Part shown: piece by piece, positions 3,001-58,485 of the stretch
Layout of the letters: every line of letters starts with the position of its first letter
Position numbering within the stretch: position 1 is the stretch's first letter
Source of the DNA: Saprospiraceae bacterium
Lineage (GTDB): Bacteria; Bacteroidota; Bacteroidia; Chitinophagales; Saprospiraceae
DNA length: 64,000 nt
Assembly (NCBI GenBank): GCA_965222105.1
Contig: CBDCTQ010000080.1
Span: forward strand, 18,638 to 82,637
Direction of reading: 5' to 3'
Position numbers and translations under genes: made by a program
Notes under the pieces: model-generated
The model's database searches: none
What the model saw: the letters and a program-made list of their open reading frames with translations, nothing else
What the model was told of the DNA's origin: nothing

Positions 3001-4139
3001 ATCGTTACCGCATCGGCATTACCACATTGGTCGGTGGCGGTATAGGTAACAGAAGCTGTACCGGTAGTGCCGCCGCAGCCGCCAGCCAGGCCGGTAAAAT
3101 CATTCGACCAGACAATGTCGCCGGGAGTAGTACAATTGTCAGCCACCATAAAATTATCGCTCCAGTTCAAAATCTGAGTAATGGGATCGGAGGGAACACC
3201 GGTACATTGAAGGGTCGTATCGGTGACTGCCGGAGGGCTGATAATCGGATTGATGTTGTCAGTAATGGTATAGGTCACCGTCACCGCAGCAGTATTTCCG
3301 CAAAGGTCAGTTGCCGTGAAGGTAACATCCAGACTAGAGCAGTCTTCGTCGTAAACAGCGGGCGCGTCATCTGAGAGGCCCATGAGACCACAACCGCTGT
3401 CGGTGGCATTAAAAATGGCTCTTTGCGCCGTAATCCAGGTGCCGTAATCAGCCATTTCGCACGACTCGGTGGCTCCAACCGGAGTTCCGGTGATAACGGG
3501 ATCATCGCTATCGCCCAGTAAGGTGATGGTTTGGATATAAGTTGTCGAGTTGCCGGCGTCGTCAGTGGCAGTCCAATTTCTATCGAAGGAGCCGCCGTCA
3601 CATCCTGGAGGAGTAGTGGTTTGACCATTGTAAACCACCGTTACACCGCTACTACCACCTCCTGGAGGAGGGCAATTGTCGGTAGCCGTGAGTGTTGGCG
3701 GGCCGGGCACCTGGGCCAGGCAATCGTAGGTAGCATTAGCAGGTAGGGTGCCTGCATCGAAAACCGGATCGGTATCATCGACAAAATCGATCTCGAAGAT
3801 GAAGTGAAGGGAACCCACCTCTCCGTTGATGTCGTAATCCGCCTGATAAGTAATGAAAACAGTCACGCCCGCCTCGACCGGATCGTTGATGGCGTAGCCA
3901 CCACTGATCTCCATGAGGAAAAAATCGGTGATGATACAATCCGGTGTATTACATACCACACTCGTAGTTGCCGGATGCCCCCAATTTAGTGGAGCGGTAC
4001 AATCGGCCCCCACATATATGGTATCGGGTCCGGTATATTCAAAGGTCATATCAACCTGAGCATGAAGGGAAACGGAAAGGGTGAGTAGTCCGGCAAATAT
4101 CAAAAGGAAGTGCGGCACTTTGAGTAATCGGTTTTCCAT
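1..4139 (-). CDS. Large secreted repeat adhesin, SprB/HYR-like, N-terminal 1379 codons; the gene continues past the window start
   Basis: Minus-strand frame from ATG at 4139 (MENRLLKVPHFLLIFAGLLTLSVSLHAQ signal peptide) is open to position 1, and the ORF track lists no minus ORF in this frame. More than 13 spaced repeats of the T-W-T-(A/V)-x-D-x-CxN / NCD motif, typical of HYR-like Ig-fold adhesin repeats. All listed + strand ORFs here are antisense artefacts. Confidence 0.6.
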   Translation of the reverse strand, partial: MENRLLKVPHFLLIFAGLLTLSVSLHAQVDMTFEYTGPDTIYVGADCTAPLNWGHPATTSVVCNTPDCIITDFFLMEISGGYAINDPVEAGVTVFITYQADYDINGEVGSLHFIFEIDFVDDTDPVFDAGTLPANATYDCLAQVPGPPTLTATDNCPPPGGGSSGVTVVYNGQTTTPPGCDGGSFDRNWTATDDAGNSTTYIQTITLLGDSDDPVITGTPVGATESCEMADYGTWITAQRAIFNATDSGCGLMGLSDDAPAVYDEDCSSLDVTFTATDLCGNTAAVTVTYTITDNINPIISPPAVTDTTLQCTGVPSDPITQILNWSDNFMVADNCTTPGDIVWSNDFTGLAGGCGGTTGTASVTYTATDQCGNADAVTINFTVQDSNDPDIIAGAKDTTVVCDGNGNQVQLSAWLADRADSEASDVCTADADIAMSMIMSGNVVTPAQVQDSVDAQLASGCGASVTVEFAYTDLCGNTSTTDADFNIIDTIAPALATFAQNITVECDNPSITYSDWLNTRGGASAVDVCTTIDNGPGSTHWSYTLLDSIPGTCYNESRRIVLFTVTDGCGHTATSSAQYIVEDNISPTISPTASDHIESCGGGDDQSDFNAWVDNYGGATAFDNCSDVEWDFFSYTISSGGSDTGIEFGDYASYPAITPVGCDWSIEVIFTVIDSCNNPSTTMATFFATDMADPTFSGIDPSNATLTVNCDDPIPALPNVVATDNCDASVTVALDSVDTPLSCLYHFQRTRTWTATDDCNNTAVVTQTIIVQDVTPPTLSGLPGNATVDCNNVPTAPVLGTDYTAADNCDGNISAGVQFDESSTQGTDPDNCNFYNYTLTRTWTVTDVCGNANTYTQDIMVQDVGIPSFTAPADTLVDCHIDLTPGGTGTVANVSDNCDADPMISYDDVIVNIPGACPNNYIIERTWTVADACNNAAATQLQTITVQDTIGPTITSPAETINLECTTETAADAAFANWVNNNGNATAFDLCTTNLNWFAAVPGSYNINDQSTWPGTHPGALDPAVCPSPNPGIYRSETVDFVVYDDCNAATSTTGVFNVIDTSPPDFVFCPGDDAVATDPGQCYNLYTLAAPIIADGCNNEVSYNFTESQPIASSQPGDDDTPVNPVTITFSGLPTPPVIATGTVALQLDFTMLDGEEPTEFFNIYGDDGSFLGTTNFAPAQCTDVTTVVNIPAATFNAWAIDGQVQITLEPNIPANQPGIFAINDICPNNAGTGGGTSVDASLDYSANEPNNLTFQYGINNGPLQTVDPIAPVVDTLMTGANTITYYATDCVGNVGTCSFVVDVTDNQDPTISCPSDIVYNLAADEGCGEVDIALDIPTSVMDNCPFLINSQTQPTSNSAALLTFTYNPNYLEYMAD

Positions 4140-4996: not shown

Positions 4997-6535
4997 TCAG
5001 GCATTGGTTAATAGTTTATCAAAATAGTCGATCCCGGCAGCAAGGTGTTCCGTCACTTTTTCTTTTCCCATCAGGGCCATCATTTCGTAGAGGGCGGGGC
5101 CCTTCATGGTACCAGCCAATACCAGCCGGAGAACGGGAAATACCTGCCCATTGCCCAGCCCCGTCTGCTGTTTGAATGTATCGACGGTTTTTTCCAGATT
5201 GGTCACATCGAATGGGGTCATCTGCTGAAGATCGGCGGCCAGTTTTTCAAAATAAGGCTTATACTCCGGCTTCCATTTTTTGCGGATCATCTTATCGTCG
5301 TAGCTGTGTACGGGTTCAAAAAAATAATATCCCTCGGCGGGAAAATCGGAATAAAAAGTAACCCGTTCTTTCATCAGTCCGCAGAAAGAAGCCAAAAACG
5401 CGTCATCAACAGCAGCGGATTGCTTATCTGTCAATAATGGTTTTACGATCCGGGCCAGTTCGTGGTTATCGGTAGCTTTGATGTATTCCTTGTTGTACCA
5501 TTTGGCTTTATCGAAGTCGAATTTGGCGCCGGAAGTGCCGATCCGTTCAAAGCTGAAAGCCTGGATGAGTTCGTCCATGGAGAATATTTCCTGTTCGGTT
5601 CCCGGGTTCCAACCCAAAAAGGCCAGAAAATTAATAACCGCTTTGTGGTCGAACCCAAATTCGCGGAAACCGACGAAAGCGTCATCGGGATCATCGCTTT
5701 TCCACGAAAGTGGGAACACGGGTATCCCCAACCGCTTGCCATCGCGCTTGCTGAGCTTACCCTTGCCGTTGGGTTTGAGAATGAGGGGTAGGTGGGCAAA
5801 GGCAGGCGGCTCCCAGCCAAATGCCCGATAGAGCAGCAGGTGATGGGGCGTACTGGGAAGCCACTCCTCCCCTCTTATCACATGGGAGATTTGCATGGCG
5901 TGATCGTCCACGATGTTGGCCAGATGATAAGTGGGCATCCCGTCGCTTTTGAGCATGACTTTGTCGTCGAGGGTGTCGCTGTTGTAGGGTACCTCACCTT
6001 TCAGCAAATCTTTCACCACGATGGTTTCTCCAGCAGGCACCTTTAGGCGAATGGTGTAGGGTTGCCCACTTTTCAACCGTTGCCGAACCTCTTCGTCAGT
6101 CAATGTAAGACTATTGTTCATCTCCATGCGGATGTGGGAGTCGTAGGCCAGCGAATGACCGCCGGCGGCTTTGAGGCGCTGGCGCATGGCGTCCAACTCT
6201 TCCGGGGTATCGAAAGCGTAGTAGGCCTGTCCGTTGTCGACGAGCTGCCGGGCGAACCGGCTGTACATCCCCTTTCGTTCCGACTGGCGGTAGGGGCCAT
6301 AGTCGCCGCCAAAGCCTGGACCTTCATCTGGGTGCAGGCCACACCATTCGAGGGCTTCCAGAATGTAGGCTTCGGCCCCGGACACGTAACGGGTCTGGTC
6401 GGTGTCTTCGATGCGAAGGAGGAAGGTGCCGCCCATTTTTTTGGCCAGTAAATAGTTGAAAAGTGCCGTGCGGATGCCGCCAATGTGGAGGGCTCCGGTA
6501 GGGCTGGGAGCAAATCGTACCCGGAAATTTTGCAT
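4997..6535 (-). CDS. gltX: Glutamate--tRNA ligase
   Basis: 512 aa with class I aaRS HIGH motif (PSPTGALHIGG) and KLSKR motif. Full-length GluRS-like sequence. Confidence 0.95.
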   Translation of the reverse strand: MQNFRVRFAPSPTGALHIGGIRTALFNYLLAKKMGGTFLLRIEDTDQTRYVSGAEAYILEALEWCGLHPDEGPGFGGDYGPYRQSERKGMYSRFARQLVDNGQAYYAFDTPEELDAMRQRLKAAGGHSLAYDSHIRMEMNNSLTLTDEEVRQRLKSGQPYTIRLKVPAGETIVVKDLLKGEVPYNSDTLDDKVMLKSDGMPTYHLANIVDDHAMQISHVIRGEEWLPSTPHHLLLYRAFGWEPPAFAHLPLILKPNGKGKLSKRDGKRLGIPVFPLSWKSDDPDDAFVGFREFGFDHKAVINFLAFLGWNPGTEQEIFSMDELIQAFSFERIGTSGAKFDFDKAKWYNKEYIKATDNHELARIVKPLLTDKQSAAVDDAFLASFCGLMKERVTFYSDFPAEGYYFFEPVHSYDDKMIRKKWKPEYKPYFEKLAADLQQMTPFDVTNLEKTVDTFKQQTGLGNGQVFPVLRLVLAGTMKGPALYEMMALMGKEKVTEHLAAGIDYFDKLLTNA

Positions 6536-7380: not shown

Positions 7381-10300
7381 TTACCGGATCAAGGTAACAT
7401 CTCCCCGATACAACAACACCGTACCATCGACAAAGATCACCTCTGCCAGATATACGTATACTCCGGTGTTCATGTCTTTGCCGTTGAACCGACCGTCCCA
7501 GCCTTCCAGGTAGGAATCGGCCGGAAGAAAGTTGAGATCTGAGTACAACTGCTCTCCCCAACGATCGTAAATATGAAAATAGCTGACCTGGGCCACACCA
7601 GGCCCTGTATATATCTTCATCACATCGTTGATGCCATCTCCGTTTGGAGAAAAAGCATTGGGGATGTACACATTTCTGTTTTTATCGATATCCACTATGA
7701 TCTCGTCGGTACCCACACAACCATTGACGTCGATTACGGTTATTTCATACTGAATCGTCTCCAACGGGCTGGCAACGGGTTCCCTGCAAAGGGTATCTCC
7801 TATCGGGCAGCGAAGAAAATTCATCGGCATCCAAAGCAACGTGTCAATGGGAAATACCGACCCGATGGCCGGATCGAGCTTCACACTGTCTCCTAGCTGT
7901 ATGGTCGTGTCGGGGCCCAGGCTCACCACTACCGGCAGCGGCTGGCCGACCGAAATATTGTATTCCGTAAAACAATCGTTGCTGTCAAAAACCCGGATGA
8001 CGTGATCTCCCGCTAAAATAGGAATAGCTGCCGTTTCAAATTGTTTTGGCCCAAAGTCGACAGAAAAGAAATATGGCTCTCCAATTCCTCCCCACGCCGT
8101 ATCGACTGTAACCACGGTTTGATCGCCAAAACAAAGCGGCTCCACAGGTGGAGGAATAAGTGCTTCCACCGGAGCAGGTTCCAACACGGTGTGTTGCACC
8201 TCATCCGAGCAGCCCTTCGAATCCGTAACCGTAACCGAATAAGTCCCCACCGTCAACCCCGTGGCAGTAGAAGAGTTATTCACATTTGGGTCCCAGGTAT
8301 AAGTAGCACCGCCGATATTGCCCCCCGTCCAGGTGACCACTATCTGCCCATCTTCCAGTCCGGCGCAACTGGCATTAAAAGTATTATCCAAATCAATGGC
8401 TGCAACCAACGGATCCGGCTCACCTACTATTACGGGTAGTAGTTTAGTACAACCATTGGCATCCGTGGCAATGACATTATAGGTTCCCGTGGGAACATTA
8501 TCTATTGTAGGGCCTATGGCCGCTACGGGATTGGTCCATTCGTAGGTATAGCTCGGTGTCCCTCCTGTAGCCTGAACCGTTGCTGAACCATCAGAATCAC
8601 CAAAGCAACTTACAGGAATACTGCTGGTGTTGGCAATGTCGAAAGCCAGTTCGGGTGGTGACGGAATGCTGTCGATCATATTCAACAAGTCTTCCACCTG
8701 TACCGTCACCGAGCAGTCTCCATCGTTGACCTCTACTGTCTGCACGCCCTGGCATAATTGCTGCGCCATGCTTTCCGAAACATTATTGAACACTTCTCCC
8801 GAAGACCAGTTGAAATTGTACAATCCCGTCTGGGCAGTACCGCCGGAAGCAATGGCCGTAGCCAGTCCATCACAAGGTACCCCCCCATTGCAGGATACCC
8901 CTTCTATGCCCGTGAAGGTGACCGCGATGGCTGAAGGGCATCCAACTTCTATACTCTCTTCAATGGTTTCACAAAAGTTGGCATCCGAAATGGTCACATT
9001 GTAAAATGAATCGCAGGTCAGGGCCGGCAACACAAAATCGGTACTTCCATTTTCCCAAAGAATGTTGTATGGTTCTGCACCTCCTGTAATATTTAAATTA
9101 ATCTGACCATCCGGGTCTTCCGGACACATGGGCTCCGTCACCACATAATCGATCACCATAGGAGGAGGCGCAAACAGGGTCACAGAATCCTGGGTCGAAC
9201 ATCCGTCAACATCGGTGACCGTCACGAAATAAGTGCCTGCGTTGAGGCCCGAAATCGTCTGGTCATTCTGTCCATTGCTCCACTCGTAGTTGATGATCGG
9301 AGAGGTACCGGGCTGGGCAATCACGGTCAGTTCGCCACTTTGATCGTTGGGACAAATGACACTTACCGAGTCAAAACCTGTGATGACCGGAAGGATCGGT
9401 TCACTGACGGCAATGGGTTGGCCATGAACACAACCATTTCCATCTGTTACAATCACATTATATAATCCTGCAATAAGGTTGGATATAGCTGGCCCGGTAG
9501 CCCCGTTGTCCCATGCATAGGTAAATGGCGGGGTCCCACCACTGGCCAACACCGTAATGGCCCCACTGCCGGGGCCAGAGTCGCAAGTGATGTGTTGCAA
9601 TAGGATGGTATCGAGCGTAATATCGATGTTACCGATGCCCTGACTGACCACTGTAGAGCACCCCAGGTTATCAGTGACCGTAGCAGAATAGGTACCCTGC
9701 CCCAGGCCATTGAGTTCAGTCATCCCATCATTGCCGGGCACACTCCAGACGATGTCATATGGAGCAATGCCGCCACTAAACACCAACGACATGGAGCCAT
9801 CCATACCACCAGGACATTGAGGATTGGTCGGATTTAATTGGGCAAACAACGGATCGGTATTGGGTATGGTAATCGTTCCGGTTTGAATAGTGCCTGTAGC
9901 ATCTGTTACTGCTACATCGTAGGTGCCTGGCGGCAAATCGATTACGGATTCAGTGTCGCCATTATTAGCAATAGTCCCCATCCCGTTATTTCCAGGATTA
10001 CCTACCTGCACCCATCCAAAATTATAGGGTGCATTGCCGCCGGTTACGGTGAAGGTGAAACTCCCGTTGTTGAGAATATCGGTGGTGCTGCAGGCTGTAA
10101 AATCCATTGTAATAGAACTGTTGGTGATGGTCACAGAACCTTCATTAAATTCATACCCGATGGCAAAGATGTCCACACCATTGGTCATCCCTATTTCTAT
10201 CACCGTCAGGTCATCGCCAAAAAAGGTAATGGGGCTACTGGTACCCACCGCACCAATGGCTGTAAAACAAACTTCGTACAAAACGGTGCCAGCAGGAAAG

Positions 10301-13235: not shown

Positions 13236-14108
13236 TTACTGCATCGTAGAAAGATCCTTAACGATCGCTTCGATGCCCTTCTGACGCACCTTTGCTTTGA
13301 AGCGGCTGGCCTGGTTCAAGGTGCGAAATTCGCCGATCAACACTTTGTACACGGTTTTGCCACGTAGCTTGGCGATGTGTACGATGATGGGTTGACTGAA
13401 CATTTTGTCCAGCCGCTCCGCTTCCGTCAACACATTACCATATTCTGCGAAAGCGCCTATCTGAACGGAGTATCCCGAAGAGGGTTGCCGCGTCACCTTG
13501 AAGCGATACAATCCTTCGCCCGACCCGATGGGATCAGTCGCGGGTTGGGTATCGGCAGATCCACCGGAGTAAGTTCCCGTATGGTCAGACGAAGAGGAAC
13601 TGCTGCCCGTAGATGCAGTAGGTGGGGGTTTGACAGGTGGAGGTGGTGGAGGTGGCGGCGGAGCACTCGTCCTTGTCTTTACCCGGTTGGCAGCCGTATT
13701 GTGCTTTTTGAGTATTTCGAGAAAACGACCGGCCGACAATGATTCCTCGTAGCGGTCTATTTCTTTTCCTTTGGAATTGAAAATGAGAATGGAAGGCAAC
13801 ATCTTGACATTGTGTACCTGCTTGTAGGCATAGCCGTCGAAGTCGTCGATGTCTACTTTCACGGCGATGTAGTTATTCTTTACATAGTTGGCCAGCGTAG
13901 GATCGGTAAACGTCGTTTCGTCCATCCACCGGCAGGGCATACACCAACTGGCCGTAAAGTCGATGAAATAGAGCTTCCCCTCCGTGGCTGCGCGGTCTTT
14001 GACGGCAGTCAGACTACCCGTAAAAAAATCGACTTTGGTATCGCCGGGGCTGAACCCCATCCACATGGGGACGGCGAGAAAGATAAATAACAGAAGTTTG
14101 TTTTGCAT
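13236..14108 (-). CDS. Thioredoxin-like domain protein with Pro-rich linker and C-terminal SPOR (peptidoglycan-binding) domain
   Basis: Signal peptide. FTASWCMPCRWM thioredoxin-like CxxC region. PPPPPPPPVKPPP linker. C-terminal ~80 aa (YSVQIGAF...KAKVRQKG) fits SPOR. Confidence 0.7.
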   Translation of the reverse strand: MQNKLLLFIFLAVPMWMGFSPGDTKVDFFTGSLTAVKDRAATEGKLYFIDFTASWCMPCRWMDETTFTDPTLANYVKNNYIAVKVDIDDFDGYAYKQVHNVKMLPSILIFNSKGKEIDRYEESLSAGRFLEILKKHNTAANRVKTRTSAPPPPPPPPPVKPPPTASTGSSSSSSDHTGTYSGGSADTQPATDPIGSGEGLYRFKVTRQPSSGYSVQIGAFAEYGNVLTEAERLDKMFSQPIIVHIAKLRGKTVYKVLIGEFRTLNQASRFKAKVRQKGIEAIVKDLSTMQ

Positions 14109-14517
14109 GGTTTTGAAATTATATTAGTCCGATCAGTGTTTGGACACGAATTTTCACAAATTGCACGAATTTCAAGAACTTGAAAAATTCCTGCTGGTCG
14201 GCAGATACAGGCGCTCGCGAATTTTAAGCTGTAAGCGAACGAACAACATGCATTCTAAATCCTTGCCTATGAACGTTTTACGCCGGAAATATAAGCGAAA
14301 TTTTATGCCGAAATGGCGTATTTTACTCTTTTTCCAGATGAAAATATGAAAATGGTGCAAATAAGGTGCCACACATATGTTTTTGTTTAATTTGTTGTGT
14401 TTTGTCTGGCAGGGGGTTTCAATATATTACACCCAAAAAGCAACACCTGTTTCCATCTCCACGTCCTTATAAGGTGGAGGTGGAGGATGTCCAACACCTT
14501 TCAAAACAACCTATCTC

Positions 14518-15639
14518 ATGCAAAATGTACTGATCACTTTTATCAGCTTTCTACTCCTTTCGGGAAATTTAGCGAAAGCGCAAACCACATCCGCACCAAG
14601 GGATGCCCGCCAACACCATGACGTCGATCTGGATCAACTCCTCGACCAACACGCCCACGCGATGGGCGGCGCCGAAGCCTGGAAAAATTTTAATACCCAC
14701 CTCATCGTCCACGATAGTCAGCAAGGCGATAAAAATTATTCCAGTACCCTTTACATGAAAATGCCCAACAAATTTCGCATCGACTTCAAGGCGGGTGACA
14801 TCCAACGCACCAAAGCCTACGACGGAGTGGAGGGCTGGATCATGCAAAACGACGAACTGCGCCCCATGCCACAAGGAGAAGACCTTGAAATGGCTGAAGA
14901 AACGGAGTTTTACGGCGAACTGGTATTGGCCCGCGACCGAGGCCACCAACTGGAATACCTCGGCACGGAAACCCTCAACGGAAAAAAAGTTCACAAAATA
15001 AAAATGACCAAATCCAAAACGGATGAGCAGTTCTACTACCTCAACCCCGAAACCCACCTCTTGGAAATGGTCGCCGAATACTCCGAAGACGTAAGCTGGA
15101 AAGGCGTTCTTTTCAAAACCAGTTTCGACGATTACCGCGAAGTAGATGGTCTCCTCTTTCCATTCAAAATGGAATTGTTTGCCGACGAGCGACTGCTCCG
15201 AAAGTTCAACACCAGAAGCATCGAAGTAAATGGGACCATGCCCGACTCCATCTTCAGTAAAGACCAGGCAATAATCCGCCGCAACATACGCCAATTCTCT
15301 GAAGCCCTGGTTAGCCAAAACTACGATGCCGTGGTCGATGCCTACACCGCCGACGGAAAAATATTTCCCAACAACAAGCCCATCCTGGAAGGCCACCCCG
15401 CCCTGCGCCAATACTGGACGCCCAAAGAAGGCAGCACCTATCGGATCATCAGCCATAAAATCACCCCGCTGGAGATCAAGATCATCGGCAACGAAGCCTA
15501 CGACTATGGCTACTACGAAGGCACCTCCACCAGTGAGGGCAAAGAAAGCAGTTGGAAAGGCAAATACGTCATTGTATGGAAAAAGGTAACGCCGGATGTG
15601 TGGAAGATGTACCTCGACATTTGGAACCGGGTACCGTAA
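14518..15639 (+). CDS. Secreted hypothetical protein with a LolA-like N-terminal region and a C-terminal NTF2-like (DUF4440/SnoaL-like) domain
   Basis: Signal peptide MQNVLITFISFLLLSGNLAKAQ. The C-terminal 120 aa (FSEALVSQNYDAVVDAYTADGKIFP...YVIVWKKVTPDVWKMYLDIWN) resembles DUF4440. The opposite-strand 359-aa ORF is antisense noise. Confidence 0.6.
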   Translation: MQNVLITFISFLLLSGNLAKAQTTSAPRDARQHHDVDLDQLLDQHAHAMGGAEAWKNFNTHLIVHDSQQGDKNYSSTLYMKMPNKFRIDFKAGDIQRTKAYDGVEGWIMQNDELRPMPQGEDLEMAEETEFYGELVLARDRGHQLEYLGTETLNGKKVHKIKMTKSKTDEQFYYLNPETHLLEMVAEYSEDVSWKGVLFKTSFDDYREVDGLLFPFKMELFADERLLRKFNTRSIEVNGTMPDSIFSKDQAIIRRNIRQFSEALVSQNYDAVVDAYTADGKIFPNNKPILEGHPALRQYWTPKEGSTYRIISHKITPLEIKIIGNEAYDYGYYEGTSTSEGKESSWKGKYVIVWKKVTPDVWKMYLDIWNRVP

Positions 15640-15734
15640 GCCGAACAACCGTCAGAAGTCATGTCGTAAGAGGGAAATTATCATTGTGGCTTGGAGACTT
15701 AGGATTGTCACGCTCGTGTGGATGTTGAAATCTG

Positions 15735-15815
15735 TGCAAAATTATGTTTGGTTTTTTGCTTTCCCCGCCCCTCTCACTCCCCTGAAGGGGAGAACACCGC
15801 CCTCAAACCAAACAT
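15735..15815. repeat. Structured palindromic element: 13-bp outer inverted repeat enclosing a GC-rich core with a ctcccctgaaggggag hairpin
   Basis: ttatgtttggttt ... aaaccaaacataa are perfect reverse complements. The inner ctcccc-tgaa-ggggag forms a 6-bp stem with tetraloop. A related element is at 49846-49915. Confidence 0.45.
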
Positions 15816-15860
15816 AACTTCAGTGTTGTCACACTTGATAATTGACTTTTAATACTGTAC

Positions 15861-16612
15861 TAAATTCTTACGACAATAGCCATGAGCAGTATGAAGAGCG
15901 TCAGCTTTGTGGAACTTTGTGTCTTTGTGACTTAGTGGTAAAAAAACAGGTATTTTGACAAATCCCGTGGAGTACTCCCGCTCGTCGAAGCCCGCCTGCC
16001 GACCGACAGGTCTCTAACTTCGATGTACTAAGTTCCTACCACAATAGCCATGAGCGATATGAAGGGCGTTACCTCTGTGGAACTTTGTGTCTTTGTGACT
16101 TAGTGGCAAAAAAACAGGTATTTTGACAAATCCCGTGGAGTACTCCCGCTCGTCGAAGCCCGCCTGCCGACCGACAGGTCTCTAACTTCGATGTACTAAC
16201 TTCCTACCACAATAGCCATGAGCGATATGAAGGACGTTACCTTTGTGGAACTTTGTGTCTTTGTGACTTAGTGGTAAAAAAACAGGTATTTTGACAAATC
16301 CCGTGGAGTACTCCCGCTCGTCGAAGCCCGCCTGCCGACCGACAGGTCTCTAACTTCGATGTACTAACTTCCTACCACAATAGCCATGAGCGATATGATG
16401 GGCGTTACCTCTGTGGAACTTTGTGTCTTTGTGACTTAGTGGTAAAAAAACAGGTGTTTTGACAAATCCCGTGGAGTACTCCCGCTCGTCGAAGCCCGCC
16501 TGCCGACCGACAGGTCTCTAACTTCGATGTACTAACTTCCTACCACAATAGCCATGAGCGATATGAAGGGCGTTACCTCTGTGGAACTTTGTGTCTTTGT
16601 GACTTAGTGGTG
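15861..16612. repeat. Tandem array of about 4.5 copies of a 168-bp repeat
   Basis: Period is exactly 168 bp (aatagccatgag anchors at 15875, 16043, 16211, 16379, 16547). Copies are >95% identical outside a ~30-nt variable window. No spacers, so this is not a CRISPR array. Each unit contains the perfect palindrome ggagtactcc and a 17-codon micro-ORF. Confidence 0.9.
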
Positions 16613-16645
16613 GAAAAAACTCAATGGAAAAAAAACATCCGTGGT

Positions 16646-16690
16646 AAAAAAAACAAAGCCCGTTTTTTGCAAAACGGGCTCAGGAAACGA
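16646..16690 (-). terminator. Rho-independent terminator (minus strand)
   Basis: 10-bp stem agcccgtttt / aaaacgggct with loop ttgc. On the minus strand it is followed by TGTTTTTTTT. Confidence 0.5.
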
Positions 16691-16777
16691 ATCTTACAAT
16701 TTTTTAACCAAAACTTACACCTTCCCAAAGGCAAACATGGTGCCAAAAACGCTCCTGAACCAAAAAAATCAAAAAAA

Positions 16778-16838
16778 AACACCTTTCTGCGGAAGAAAAA
16801 TACAGAAAGGTGTTTTTGGTTCGTCCAAATGCGACTAC
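16778..16838 (-). terminator. secDF terminator (hairpin with T-runs on both sides, bidirectional)
   Basis: cacctttc...gaaaggtg stem immediately downstream of the secDF stop (16840). T/A runs flank it on both strands. Confidence 0.5.
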
Positions 16839-16839
16839 A

Positions 16840-19800
16840 CTAAGTACTGGCCGCCTTGGAAAAGCTGCGCTTCTTGGCCGACTTGGCCTTGAGGTCGCCT
16901 GTAAGGTCAGACATGATCGGCGTGGCCACAAACACCGAAGAGTAAGTACCCACGATGATGCCGACAAAGAGGGCAAAGGCAAACCCACGGATGCTGGTAC
17001 CACCAAAGAACAACAGGATGGCCACCACAAACAAGGTGGTCAACGAGGTGATCACCGTCCGGCTGATCGTACTGTTGATGGCCATGTTGATGACCTCCTC
17101 TTTGGTCTTACCGGTATAGCTGTTCATAAACTCACGGATCCGGTCGAATACGACCACCGTATCGTTGATCGAGTAACCGATCACCGTAAGGATGGCCGCA
17201 ATAAAGGCCTGATCTACTTCGAGCGAAAAAGGTAGTATGCCCCAAAACAGTGAAAAGATGGCGAGCACCACCAGTGTATCGTGAAACAGGGCCGCTACCG
17301 CTCCCATACTGTACTGCCATTTATTGAATCGCAGGAAGATGTACAGGAAGATGAGCAGCAAAGCAAATATGGTCGCATACACCGAGCTGGTCTTGATGTC
17401 GTCGGCAATGGTGGGCCCCACCTTGCTCGACTGCGTAACATGCGCCCCACTCACTGCATCGGGATTTTTAAAACTTTCGTAGTTAACCACGCCTCCCAGG
17501 GCGGCATTCACTCCTTCGTGCAATTTGACCATGACCAGGCTGTCCGCCTTTTCCTCATCGCTGTCGATCAGATAGCTGGTCACCACATTATAGGTGTTGG
17601 CCGTGCTGACCGCCTTGACAACGGGCGCCGAACCAAAGCTGCCCTTCAATGCCGTACGCATCTGCTCTACATTGACCTGTTGGCCTTCTTCAAACTGAAC
17701 ATTGTAGGAGTAGCCCCCTTTAAAATCAACCCCCAGGTCGAAGCCCCGCATAAACATAGAACCGATTCCCAACAATATAATGGCCAGTGACAGGCCGTAG
17801 GCAATTTTGCGCTTGCCCAGCCAGTCGATATTCAGGTTGGCAAATGCGTTTTTGGAAGCATTTGTCCAGAAAGTCATGTTCTTTTCGCGATCAACCGTCC
17901 ACCAGTCGATGATCATCCGGCCCACCAGTACGGCGGTAAACAGCGAACAAAGCACACCGATGATCAACACCACAGCAAACCCCTTGATGGGCCCCATACC
18001 GAAATAGGCCAGTACGAAGGCCGTCAGGATGGTCGTCACGTTGGCATCGATGATGGCGGAGTAGGAATGTTGAAAACCGTCTTTGATCGACATGAGCAAC
18101 GATTTGCCAGCCCTTAGTTCTTCCCGTATCCGTTCGTAAATGATCACGTTGGCATCCACCGCCATACCGATGGTGAGTACGATACCGGCAATACCCGGCA
18201 AGGTAAGCACCGTACCAAAGCTGGCCAGCATGCCAAAGATGAAAAACAGGTTGAGAAACAGGGCAATGATCGATACCACCCCGCCCGATCCGTAGTAAAA
18301 GATCATAAAGAGGAGCACCAGTCCAAAACCGATCAGCAGTGAGTTGATACTACGCGAAATATTTTCCGCACCCAGCGAAGGCCCCACCAATGATTCCTGG
18401 ATGATCTTGGTCTTGGCCGGCAGCTTACCGATTTGAAGGATCTTCGATAGGTCTTCCGCCTCCGTCATCGTAAAGTCGCCGGTGATGGACGAGTTGCCAT
18501 TCATAATCGGGTTGATGACCCGTGGTGCCGAAACGATCTTGTCGTCGAGGGCAATGGCAATTTCGCGGTTGTTGTCCTGGGCGGCTTTGGTGGTCATTTT
18601 GCCCCAGATGTTGGCGCCTTGTCCGTTCATCCGCAGTGATACGGCAATCTGACCGTTCGTGGGATCGGGAGCGGCGCCGGCAGCTGTGACCATATCGCCG
18701 GCCAGAGGTGGGTCGTCGTCGTTGATGCCTTCTTTTTTGATGGCGTAAAGCTCGTAGATATTCGACTCGGCGTCGTATTCGTTGTAGCCGGTGGCCGGAT
18801 AGTGCGACCATAGGAATACCAGGTCTTTGGGCAACAGGCTGATTACGGCCGGGTCTTTCAGATATTCGTTGATCTTGTCGATCTTATTCTTCTCGGCGGT
18901 ACCGACTACGGTCAGCGGCATGAGCAATCCACTGGCGGAGGAGTTGTTTAGCGTAAGCAAATTCAACAGCGGGCCGGTGGTGGTCAGCAGATCGTCTCCG
19001 GCAAAGGTGGTGTCGTAAGTGACTACTGCATGAGAATCGATTATGTTGCCGGTATCGTCGTAATCGTATGACCAGGTAGAGGTACTGTCAACAGAAAGCA
19101 CCTCTTTTTCGTCGGTTACTTCGGTGGTATCACCGGTGCTGAGTCGTCGTAGTTTATCGTCGGCTTGTGCCAAAAGCTGAGTGATGCCGAGGCCGGAGTT
19201 GTTCATCCGGTCGGAAACGCGGTACACGTTCCAGAATTCCAGTTTGGCGGTGGTTTGCAGGAATTTACGGGCCCGTTCCGGGTTGGAGATGCCGGGCAAC
19301 TCTACGATGATGAGGTCTCTGGCGGCATCGAGCGATACGTTGGGTTGTATCACGCCGAGTTCGTCGATCCGTTCTTTGAGCCGTTTATGGGTCAGGCTGA
19401 CGGTTTCATCGGCCTTTTCGCGCAATATCCTTACCACCTCCGCATCGGAGGTACCGATTTTGATTTCATCGCGTAGTATTTCATTGGATGTGAAGGGGCG
19501 TGCCAAACTACCGCCGCCGACCTCTTTATAGGCCCTGGCAAAGAGGGTGATGAAGTCGGATTGGGTATTTTGAAGTTGGGAAGATGCTTTTTCTATAGCC
19601 TTTTCAATAGTGGGGTCTTTGGAATCGTTGGCGAGTGAGCGAATAAAATCTCTTAGGTCAACCTGTAAGACCACACTCATTCCGCCTTTCAGGTCGAGGC
19701 CGAGGGCCAGTTGGGCATTCTTCATCTCCTCGTAAGTGTACTTCTTGAGGAGGGGAATGCTGAAAATGGTTTCGCTGGACATCGAGTCCAGGTAGGAGGT

Positions 19801-20400: not shown

Positions 20401-20886
20401 ATGGGCTTATTTTCATTTCTAAAAAACTCAGGCGCCAAAATTCTCACCAAAAAAAATGCTAAAGAGGTCGTTACACCTGAAATAAAAAGAATGGAGGAAG
20501 AAATTCTCAATAAACAAAAGATGATCCTGCTCAGAGGCGTCGTCGACAATCTAGGCATCAAAGTCAAAAACATGGACCTGAACTACGACGGCTCCACCGT
20601 AACCATTCACGGACAAGTCAACACTCAGGCCGACCGCGAAAAGGTCATCCTCGCCCTGGGCAATGTGGGTGGAGTATCCAGGGTTGACGACCGCCTCTCC
20701 GTCAAAAAAGAACAGCCCGAAGCGGATTTCTACACCGTAAAACGGGGTGACTCCCTTTCCAAAATCGCCAAACGATACTATGGCGACCCCATGAAGTACA
20801 AGAAAATATTTGAAGCCAATAAACCCATGCTCAAAGATCCGAACCTGATCTATCCCGGGCAGGTGTTGCGGATACCGCAGAAGTGA
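20401..20886 (+). CDS. BON + LysM domain protein (Kbp/YgaU-like)
   Basis: Central BON-like region followed by a C-terminal LysM motif (YTVKRGDSLSKIAKRYYGDPMKYKKIFEANKPMLKDPNLIYPGQVLRIP). Confidence 0.8.
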   Translation: MGLFSFLKNSGAKILTKKNAKEVVTPEIKRMEEEILNKQKMILLRGVVDNLGIKVKNMDLNYDGSTVTIHGQVNTQADREKVILALGNVGGVSRVDDRLSVKKEQPEADFYTVKRGDSLSKIAKRYYGDPMKYKKIFEANKPMLKDPNLIYPGQVLRIPQK

Positions 20887-27869: not shown

Positions 27870-29381
27870 TTATATTGTGGTTCCAGATAAAGATCGATGG
27901 TTTTGGTAGGCCGATACGCGATTTTGCAATCCTGCTCCCATATCCAGTCTGTTTTTTTTGAGTGATGGGTGCATGGTATGTATTCTGGTTCGTTCTGGCC
28001 GCAAATTGGGATGTGGGCTCCTCTGTGCGAGATCGAAGCTGCGCCGGTGTTTTTGCAGGTGAGACAGCACCATACCTACGGAACTGCTCAGAGCAAATTT
28101 TCCACCATCAAGGAGGGTATACCGGACGGACAAGGGGATTTGGAGGTGGGTATTCGTCATTTCGTCCTTTATTTCCATGCCAACCCGGGTGCCGTTGGGA
28201 ATGGTTTGGTCGGGCCGCCGGGAGAATGGAACGTCTATGGGTACATCTCCGTAGCTGGTACGCAGTTCTGTGGAGTAAGTAGTTTCGAGGCGGCCATCGG
28301 CAGTGGTGGTTTCCGCAGCCGGGTCATAGCGGAATGACAAGTCGTGATGGCGTCGGCTGGTCTGTTGCATCCATCCCAGACCGCTCTCCAATGACCATCG
28401 GTCGCTGATCTGCCAACCCAAGCGCAAACCAGCGGTAAAAGCATACTTATTGTCGATATTTTTGTTGATCGGTTCTCCGCTTTTGGTTTTGGCAATCGCC
28501 TTTGTAAAGGCGGGGCCTGCCCAGATACCGGCATACCATTTCTTTTTTTGCGGAAGCGGTATAGGGTCGGTGTGCCTTAACTGTCCTTTGGCCTTTGGCC
28601 CCGGCACACTGAGTAAGGGGTGAGTCTGGGTTGGGGCTAACACAAAAGTCGATGTTGCTTCTTTTTCGAAGGGGAAAGCCTTTTGCCCTACCAGTGGTTT
28701 GGATTTGGATCCGTTAAGGGCCTGGGGTGACTTTTGGCCTTTGTTTTCTTTCATTAGTTGTTTTTCCTGGGGACTTATCTTGTTTGTCTTCGTTGGTTTT
28801 GATTTTTCCAACTGCTGGGTGGGCTTGGTTGTTGGCGTAGGTGTCTTCTGTGATGAGTTTGGGATATTTTTAGATTCGGGTTTGTTGGTTGATTTTGTAG
28901 TACTATTGTTAATCGTCGTTGTTTTTTGTTGTTGGTTAGTGGCTTTTTCATTGGTATCGTGTGGCGGTTCTGAGGAAGGTGTTTCCAGGTCGGGAAGCAG
29001 GATGGTCGACTCTTTTAGTGCCTTTTCTGTAGGGTGCTGCTTTATTTCATCGGGGAGTTGGTTCAACTGGTCTGCCTGGCGGGCAAGTTGTTGCTCAAGG
29101 GTGCTTATTTTGTGGTGTGAGTAGATGGCGATACCAGCTACCATCAGTAAGAGTATGGTAGCAGCGATGGCCCAGAGGTGTCGCCGCAGGGGTCTGCGGA
29201 CGGGCTGTTTGGGAGCCGGTAGTTGATCGGCGATGCCTTCCCAGACGGCGTGGGAGGGCAGGTCCCAGTTGGTGGAGCCTGGCTGGCTGGGGTTGTCGTT
29301 CAGGCCTTTTTGGAAGAACTGTTCCAGATTGTCGTTGGGTTTATTTTTTTTCATATGTTGGATTTTCATCGCGCTTCGCAC
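27870..29381 (-). CDS. Membrane-spanning anti-sigma factor-like protein with low-complexity linker and C-terminal outer-membrane beta-barrel-like domain
   Basis: Located immediately downstream of the ECF sigma gene on the same strand. Cytoplasmic N-domain, one TM helix (WAIAATILLLMVAGIAIY), T/K/P/Q-rich linker, C-terminal ~200 aa rich in alternating beta-strand patterns. Start codon ambiguous: GTG at 29381, ATG at 29369 or ATG at 29354. Confidence 0.6.
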   Translation of the reverse strand: MRSAMKIQHMKKNKPNDNLEQFFQKGLNDNPSQPGSTNWDLPSHAVWEGIADQLPAPKQPVRRPLRRHLWAIAATILLLMVAGIAIYSHHKISTLEQQLARQADQLNQLPDEIKQHPTEKALKESTILLPDLETPSSEPPHDTNEKATNQQQKTTTINNSTTKSTNKPESKNIPNSSQKTPTPTTKPTQQLEKSKPTKTNKISPQEKQLMKENKGQKSPQALNGSKSKPLVGQKAFPFEKEATSTFVLAPTQTHPLLSVPGPKAKGQLRHTDPIPLPQKKKWYAGIWAGPAFTKAIAKTKSGEPINKNIDNKYAFTAGLRLGWQISDRWSLESGLGWMQQTSRRHHDLSFRYDPAAETTTADGRLETTYSTELRTSYGDVPIDVPFSRRPDQTIPNGTRVGMEIKDEMTNTHLQIPLSVRYTLLDGGKFALSSSVGMVLSHLQKHRRSFDLAQRSPHPNLRPERTRIHTMHPSLKKNRLDMGAGLQNRVSAYQNHRSLSGTTI

Positions 29382-29466
29382 GATGTTGGTGCAGTCGCCC
29401 TGTTAGGGCTTTTTTGATGATGCATCGCGCTTCGCACGATGTTGGTGCAGTCGCCCCGTTAGGGCT
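29368..29466. repeat. Two direct copies of a ~44-bp sequence, 12 bp apart, at the sigma / anti-sigma junction
   Basis: catcgcgcttcgcacgatgttggtgcagtcgccc[t/c]gttagggct at 29368-29410 and 29423-29466, with one mismatch. Copy 1 overlaps candidate start codons of the anti-sigma gene. Confidence 0.6.
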
Positions 29467-29476
29467 CTTTGGGTTT

Positions 29477-58350: not shown

Positions 58351-58485
58351 CATGAAAGCCTGCCCCGGACTTGATACGGGGGACTACGCCAGTGAAAGCC
58401 TGCCCCGGACTCGATTCGGGAGCCTGCCCCGAACTTGATTCGGGGGACTAACGCCGTTCACTGCACGTGTCGTTTCGCCTTCATG
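58351..58485 (+). mobile_element. 135-bp MITE/REP-like element with three tandem hairpin sub-repeats, in the nqrE-nqrF spacer
   Basis: catgaaagcc ... cgccttcatg terminal inverted repeats. Three internal copies of gcctgccccgRacttgaty cgggggact, each a 4-7-bp stem-loop. Homologous to 40083-40138. Confidence 0.55.

Follow-up and report, generated by a model that had tools for sequence, protein, structure and literature searches.

Tandem arrays of short units are known from several bacterial systems. Variable-number tandem repeats (VNTRs) include the mycobacterial loci built of interspersed repetitive units (MIRU-type loci) and the large-unit VNTRs used in typing by multiple-locus VNTR analysis (MLVA). 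The sopC site of the F plasmid consists of twelve repeats of 43 bp, and SopB binds an inverted repeat in each of them. Tandemly repeated type I toxin–antitoxin loci occur in enterobacteria, and the Sib/Ibs (QUAD) and Ldr/Rdl (LDR) loci of E. coli combine strongly hydrophobic transmembrane toxins with conserved antisense RNAs. A tandem array of the small RNA (sRNA) NsiR1 in Nostoc/Anabaena was reportedly described by Ionescu et al. (2010, J Mol Biol 398:177). Here we analyze an array of 168-bp units in a 64-kb stretch of a Saprospiraceae genome (contig CBDCTQ010000080.1 of assembly GCA_965222105.1), referred to below as the window. We consider it probable that this array is a lineage-specific, non-coding minisatellite of the VNTR type, which arose by slipped-strand or unequal recombination, was homogenized by unequal exchange and is probably neutral.

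The array resembles a VNTR in that its non-coding copies lie head to tail in an intergenic gap, with a near-identical interior and degenerate edges, and in that it is restricted to one lineage, absent from the orthologous site in related species and without a demonstrable function. Its 168-bp unit lies, however, at the long end of the range for bacterial VNTRs. Copy-number polymorphism between strains defines a VNTR, and the array, known from a single genome of its species, is assigned to the class by its structure. There is also a superficial likeness to clustered regularly interspaced short palindromic repeats (CRISPR), because each unit can be divided into a constant part and a variable part of ∼30 nt and the terminal copy is degenerate. 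The variable part differs between copies by only 1–6 point substitutions in 30 nt, however, with no unrelated spacers, and the constant part measures ∼138 nt as opposed to 23–50 nt. No cas genes were found among the open reading frames (ORFs) examined in the window.

Extent and copy structure of the 168-bp array

Tandem Repeats Finder places the array at 15856–16620, a span of 765 bp with a period of 168, 4.5 copies, 96% matches, no indels and a score of 1409, and a direct-repeat search returned start-to-start spacings of 168/168/168. In a phased column layout, to which no strand is assigned, four full copies start at 15856, 16024, 16192 and 16360. A partial fifth copy, also without strand, runs from 16528 to ∼16620; it tracks the consensus over unit positions 0 to ∼92, and the GC-rich half is missing. 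The tandem repeat itself is far beyond the chance level. A preliminary description of this DNA, made from the sequence without database searches, had reported a non-coding array of ∼4.5 units with a 168-bp period at this position, and each of these points is borne out: no ORF of at least 40 aa spans the array, and every one of the six unit frames holds at least one stop per unit. Its count of five copies near-identical over ∼138 nt has to be lowered to four, since the fifth is partial. A reading of the unit as a long ORF with recoded stops was tried and rejected; the two frames with a single stop per unit match the chance expectation, and the flanking genes end with standard TAA/TAG codons.

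The copies differ at unit columns 8, 12, 16, 32, 33, 39, 41, 42, 46, 48, 51, 83, 84 and 96. The left edge of copy 1 (15856–15907, no strand) departs from the consensus at 9 sites, all of them in unit positions 8–51, which amounts to a divergence of ∼20% (9 differences in 44 nt), and the other 116 nt of this copy match the remaining copies exactly. Copies 2–5 differ at seven singleton columns, one of which, column 84, is where the array decays on the right, and 79 nt are identical across all four full copies. The preliminary description had placed all differences inside one window of ∼30 nt and had seen in it a conserved scaffold with a tolerated or selected variable segment. Columns such as 83, 84 and 96 fall outside that window, and in a permutation test the clustering has p = 0.02 when copy 1 is included but p = 0.88 for copies 2–5 alone, so that the cluster vanishes once copy 1 is left out. 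The supposed segment coincides with the first 50 nt of the outermost copy, which have diverged. Judged from the aligned copies, it appears to be the edge effect expected of an array homogenized by unequal exchange, with no sign of a selected segment; the outer part of copy 1 would drift because unequal exchange cannot overwrite the outer edge. The NsiR1 array is likewise described as having identical central and diverged peripheral copies (PMC9045159), indicating that this pattern is generic to tandem arrays. The wider caution is that decay of an edge copy can mimic a selected variable segment. A hairpin spanning the variable window was also considered for compensatory changes, an idea that was set aside, as the registers were inconsistent among copies and the sequences too few.

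The private substitutions of the copies also bear on whether the array is real. An assembler could have traversed a repeat loop too many or too few times, and the array does lie on a metagenome-assembled contig that is seen once in the collections. Such a looped graph would yield identical copies, however, and the distinct private substitutions of these copies therefore speak against an artefact. So do the diverged edge copy, the clean unique flanks and the names of sibling contigs from these samples, which appear typical of long-read assemblies. We regard an assembly artefact as very unlikely.

How such an array could have formed is suggested by its right-hand junction, where it meets the predicted terminator of an sRNA candidate encoded on the minus strand (described below). 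The array begins 26 nt past the T-run of this terminator, and those 26 nt form an 18-bp mini-repeat (16614–16654, no strand; 2.4 copies; Tandem Repeats Finder and repeat search) of the T-run/ACCAC tail of the terminator. A 14-nt motif of the mini-repeat, TGTTTTTTTACCAC on the minus strand, reappears in each of the 168-bp units. Together, the mini-repeat and the recurring TGTTTTTTTACCAC point to repeated slippage seeded at the terminator tail. In the course of events that we infer, an intergenic stretch of ∼168 bp beside the T-rich tail would have served as the founding unit and would have been duplicated, either when strands slipped and mispaired or when short direct repeats recombined unequally. 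From there the array would have grown to 4.5 copies, kept near-uniform by unequal crossing-over or gene conversion, while the outermost 50 nt of the left copy, which exchange cannot reach, drifted to ∼20% divergence. All of this would have taken place in a constraint-free gap between convergent transcription units, where the array may be neutral. The palindrome, TTGACA box and micro-ORF discussed in the next section would each have occurred a single time, by chance, in the founding unit and have been multiplied along with it.

The lineage-specific character of the array was assessed at the secDF loci of relatives with 82–69% SecDF identity (L024, L025, L026, L150, L151, L148/L149, L152, L147 and L153). 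The L151 contig (GCA_024449835.1) ends at 5940–5950 inside the sigma-54-type promoter of the sRNA candidate, so that its downstream region is unreadable; the break might reflect a repeat. The 168-bp array is absent downstream of secDF in all eight evaluable relatives (L024, L025, L026, L147, L148/L149, L150, L152 and L153). A homolog of the DUF4440 gene that flanks the array on the other side is present in L023 (65% identity), where it does not lie beside secDF and has no array. The preliminary description had suggested looking for the unit in the same genome and in relatives, and neither the secDF loci nor exact-pattern scans yielded a homologous copy. An 18-mer from the invariant core, CGTGGAGTACTCCCGCTC, gave 22 single matches in 185,579 species genomes, from unrelated phyla and none of them tandem, which is about the number estimated for chance beforehand. 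No match to the unit was found in viral contigs, plasmids and phages, and no dispersed copy exists elsewhere in the 64-kb window. Comparison of the unit with its flanks, with the sRNA candidate and with the intergenic DNA of relatives gave null-level scores except for a low-complexity match, GTGGTAAAAAAA.

Coding, promoter and structure signals in the unit

Because the copies arose by duplication, any feature of the unit counts as one event; a motif multiplied in this way is evidence of one occurrence and not of five, a caution that applies to each feature noted in the preliminary description. The 17-codon ATG ORF (MSDMKGVTSVELCVFVT) is present in five copies with the peptide variants that had been listed, at 16050–16103 on the plus strand and also at 15882, 16218, 16386 and 16554. 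In our judgment it is no gene. Shuffling the unit yields an ATG-ORF of 17 codons or longer in 86% of cases, and the changes among copies comprise 1 synonymous and 8 non-synonymous nucleotides, which is not what a micro-peptide array would lead one to expect. It is nonetheless intact in 5/5 copies, and the array can be likened to the Sib/Ibs and Ldr/Rdl loci as a set of tandem intergenic repeats in the 100–500 bp class with a very small ORF, each unit supplying one 17-aa peptide of a micro-peptide or type I toxin–antitoxin-like family. The peptide, however, contains D, K and E, and its longest run of uncharged residues is 6 aa, too short for a membrane helix, so that it cannot be a membrane-spanning type I toxin. 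Unlike the toxins of these loci it is insufficiently hydrophobic, and it evolves without constraint; moreover, no promoter accompanies it. We consider a peptide family of this kind extremely improbable.

A TTGACA-like box had also been noted, and it is indeed present in all four full copies; TTGACA on either strand is found in 8% of shuffled units. No sigma-70 consensus promoter was found in the array, and that consensus is the wrong one for this genome, which uses TTTG/TAnnTTTG promoters. In a scan for TTTG-N17–23-TAnnTTTG, the window holds three full sites of the form TTTG-N19–21-TAnnTTTG, one of them just upstream of the gene starting at 20401, and the 168-bp unit holds none; sigma-54 motifs are likewise lacking in the array units. 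The idea of a promoter in each unit thus finds no counterpart among the sigma-70-type, TTTG/TAnnTTTG and sigma-54 patterns.

Nor does either strand of the unit fold better than dinucleotide-shuffled sequences. Whole units gave z-scores of +0.27 and 0.01, and the invariant GC-rich part gave −0.74 on the minus strand. No part of the array matches Rfam 15: a search of the whole window at gathering thresholds was negative there, and one of 15600–16900 at an E-value of ≤10 returned terminator look-alikes only. These results count against the proposal of a structured RNA or a multi-copy sRNA locus. On the minus strand, each unit does carry a weak 9-bp, mostly A–U hairpin followed by U7, which the terminator scan does not call; the 39-nt segment that contains it together with a hairpin of 3 bp has a folding energy of −8.5 kcal/mol (z −0.7).

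An NsiR1-type locus would use these elements as follows. Every 168-bp copy would be transcribed separately, the minus strand being the most plausible one, into an RNA of ∼100 nt that covers the invariant GC-rich part and ends at the weak hairpin and U7, with the variable part serving as promoter or spacer. The distribution of differences fits this arrangement, since the 79 invariant nt coincide with the presumed body of the RNA and the variable columns with what would lie upstream of it, and the 9-bp hairpin and U-run recur in every unit. The NsiR1 array itself offers a precedent, with an identical center and diverged edge copies (PMC9045159). As described in two reports, however, NsiR1 units each have their own promoter (with a DIF1 motif) and 60-nt transcript and are conserved in heterocystous cyanobacteria (PMC9045159, PMC4030482). 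The present array shares only the layout of short non-coding tandem units; it has no promoter of a recognized type on either strand, is absent from relatives, and carries a weak terminator-like hairpin only. With the hairpin uncalled and folding no better than shuffles, with no Rfam match, no conservation in relatives and no homolog in the collections searched, we think an sRNA array unlikely.

The remaining feature is the perfect 10-bp palindrome GGAGTACTCC, which by exact search occurs at 15969–15978, 16137–16146, 16305–16314 and 16473–16482 (no strand). It had been counted five times; there are only four occurrences, as the incomplete fifth copy does not extend into the half that carries it. 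The palindrome sits inside the invariant part, one in each of the four full units. Palindromes of at least 10 bp arise by chance in 15.5% of shuffled 168-bp units and in 13% of real 168-bp windows of the same sequence.

Four such dyads at a spacing of 168 bp (16 helical turns) could recruit a dimeric DNA-binding protein, in which case the array might enhance the neighboring sigma-54 promoter from downstream, titrate the protein or act like a centromere. Consistent with this, the dyad is perfect, invariant and in helical phase, and the sigma-54 promoter of the sRNA candidate, which would require an enhancer-binding protein, is 250–800 bp away. The layout is also that of sopC, namely direct repeats with one dyad-symmetric site each in constant phase. 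In contrast to sopC, however, the array lies among chromosomal core genes, has no adjacent partition genes and no plasmid or phage similarity, and is built of a unit four times longer with a dyad at the frequency expected by chance for one unit. The preliminary description is thus right that every full unit bears a dyad, but the dyad is not above chance, with 13–15% expected per unit and the four copies counting as one event. Furthermore, no related site was found near either of the two sigma-54-type promoters of the window or in the sRNA loci of relatives, where the sRNA and its promoter are conserved without such an array, and no partition or regulator gene adjoins it except a LuxR-type response regulator at 4 kb. 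A metagenome scan for two GGAGTACTCC dyads 143–173 bp apart gave at least 120 matches with an excess at a spacing of 168, but this excess consists of unrelated coding repeats and a GC-rich 169-bp satellite family, and blastn found nothing in common between these loci and the array beyond the dyad. A protein-binding role is neither supported nor contradicted by these comparisons and is, in our estimate, unlikely.

The satellite family merits mention in its own right. It is a GC-rich (∼65%) tandem satellite of 168–170 bp in metagenome contigs, located at 572–1250 of L137 with related units in L074, L080, L101 and L126, and it carries GGAGTACTCC once per unit in a sequence otherwise unrelated to the unit of the window.

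Four readings had been offered for the array: a multi-copy sRNA locus, a micro-peptide array, a protein-binding array and a VNTR. Only the last survives these comparisons. The accompanying remark that none of them is an annotated feature class concerns annotation practice and not novelty. As an ordinary minisatellite with an unusually long unit, the array would be of small direct importance, useful at most for typing strains within an uncultured lineage of Saprospiraceae; the sRNA candidate beside it and a parallel array in one relative may matter more.

A conserved small-RNA candidate and the setting of the array

The array lies in the gap between convergent units, the DUF4440 gene on the plus strand on one side and secDF plus the sRNA candidate on the minus strand on the other. 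Alignments, a covariance model and a terminator scan define the candidate at 16645–16725 (minus strand), where an invariant single-stranded region of 38 nt, TGTAAGTTTTGGTTAAAAAATTGTAAGATTCGTTTCCT, with two UGUAAG motifs is combined with a terminator hairpin at 16656–16681. The upper stem of this hairpin varies among loci with compensatory changes (AU/UA/GC). A motif scan places a sigma-54-type promoter, TGGCACCATGTTTGC, at 16731–16745 (minus strand); its form is TGGCAC-N5-TTGC, and the TGGCA and TTG columns are invariant in eight loci.

The covariance model (R1) was built from eight loci, with L153 left out of training, and gives one match per locus in 10/10 loci at 75–107 bits, L153 included; the window scores 102.5 bits. 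In relatives the candidate lies at 9290–9370 of L024, 9439–9519 of L025, 9567–9647 of L026, 6297–6374 of L147, 6510–6587 of L148/L149, 3434–3514 of L150, 3926–4003 of L152 and 6281–6359 of L153. It has no match in Rfam 15, and our search of the literature for sigma-54 sRNAs in Bacteroidota, or for tandem arrays beside sRNA genes, found nothing relevant. To our knowledge, few regulatory RNAs are known in Bacteroidota, and the candidate is a testable new regulatory RNA in Saprospiraceae-like loci. The idea that the array acts as a sponge or target of this RNA was rejected: complementarity of the invariant sRNA region to the array of the window or to that of L150, on either strand, is no better than in shuffles.

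The strict sigma-54 pattern has only two sites in the window. The second, TGGCACCTTATTTGC at 14357–14371 (minus strand), is intergenic and lies ∼250 bp upstream of a gene for a thioredoxin/SPOR-domain protein (13236–14108, minus strand).

Several features that the preliminary description placed around the array are confirmed. The gene upstream does encode a DUF4440/LolA-like protein. Between it and the array there is a palindromic element, an imperfect 16-bp inverted repeat of 82 bp in all (15739–15820, no strand; repeat search, fold z −2.4) that encloses a CTCCCC-TGAA-GGGGAG hairpin. No T-run accompanies it, and neither the window nor any fetched locus holds a further copy; it may be a degenerate element of the MITE (miniature inverted-repeat transposable element) or REP (repetitive extragenic palindrome) type or an atypical terminator. 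On the other side, both terminator hairpins are real. The one at 16656–16681 is, on the evidence of the alignments, the predicted terminator of the conserved sRNA candidate. The other, a perfect 15-bp hairpin at 16775–16817 (no strand; inverted-repeat search) after the secDF stop (16840), is taken as the secDF terminator and could act bidirectionally.

The wider neighborhood is core chromosome, with genes for glutamyl-tRNA synthetase, an AIR-synthase-like protein, CoaBC, Nqr, SecDF and a BON-LysM protein. The LuxR-type response regulator is encoded 4 kb from the array; no mobile-element, integrase or transposase genes were found near the array and no partition genes adjoining it. Judged by the proteins on either side of the array, the source belongs to an uncultured, Saprospiraceae-like lineage of Bacteroidota; the closest named matches to SecDF are from metagenome-assembled genomes of Saprospiraceae, Phaeodactylibacter and Lewinellaceae. 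Both flanking proteins fall in one-member clusters, and the species is represented by a single contig of 167 kb in the collections.

A second array at the same site

One relative, L150 (JGI 3300081799, SecDF 72% identical), has a tandem array of its own at the position corresponding to that in the window. It comprises four copies of 157/131/157/154 bp at 3519–4117, starts 8 nt past the sRNA terminator and fills the gap to a convergent PLDc_2 gene; in L026, which has the same gene order, the matching gap is 9 bp as opposed to ∼600 bp of array in L150. No similarity was detectable between the L150 unit and the 168-bp unit of the window. The former is strongly structured (z −3.4), with hairpins that show compensatory changes among copies, and one copy is without the 26-nt inner hairpin. 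The two arrays are the only ones with a period of at least 40 in 150.7 kb of related sequence.

This coincidence is one of the points that weigh against interpreting the array of the window as a neutral minisatellite, because an array at exactly the same position suggests a special site, a hot spot or a functional link. The coincidence is suggestive and not proven, since the sample of loci was centered on this position and gaps between convergent genes readily tolerate such arrays. In addition, the 79 nt that are identical in four copies could mean constraint instead of recent homogenization; a weak hairpin and U7 recur in each unit on the minus strand, and as far as sequence goes an unstructured sRNA or an alternative-sigma promoter is conceivable; and homologs were sought by exact-pattern scans, which are blind to relatives below ∼90% identity.

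Integrases target tRNA or tmRNA genes, and the 3′ flank of the sigma-54 sRNA gene might similarly be a hot spot or attachment site into which unrelated small non-coding modules are inserted and then amplified, either by template switching stimulated by hairpins and T-tracts or by some site-specific process of a new kind acting on the sRNA 3′ end; under this model the arrays may or may not matter to the sRNA. Two unrelated arrays on one orthologous spot, with no other of comparable period in the related sequence, are what this model would produce, and the 9-bp distance between the sRNA and the PLDc_2 stop in L026 fits an insertion in L150. The gene that follows secDF and the sRNA varies by locus group (an unknown 334-aa protein, HDAC, PLDc_2 twice, OmpA in L147, L148/L149 and L152, and DUF4440), and synteny therefore breaks exactly after the sRNA. 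Copies of the T-run/ACCAC sequence lie at the junction in the window. Arrays are present, however, in only 2/9 evaluable loci of a sample centered on the site; the two have no common junction or core sequence; no integrase or transposase was found nearby; and the L150 unit is structured whereas that of the window is not, so different origins are possible. We give a hot spot of this kind a fairly low probability. That the sRNA 3′ flank is a recurrent docking site for tandem non-coding modules functionally coupled to the sRNA seems to us improbable; such modules, the 168-bp unit here and the 131–157-bp hairpin unit in L150, could for example extend the sRNA 3′ end by read-through, serve as platforms for enhancement or titration, or stem from an unknown recombination system that acts on the sRNA terminator. 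A second, unrelated array at the same site nevertheless raises the hot-spot question in a testable form.

Two other short direct repeats occur in intergenic DNA of the window. At 29367–29470 there are two 48-nt copies 56 bp apart that are 96% identical, and at 58353–58454 there are three copies of 38 nt with a 24-bp sub-period and GCCTGCCCCG..CGGGG hairpin-like units.

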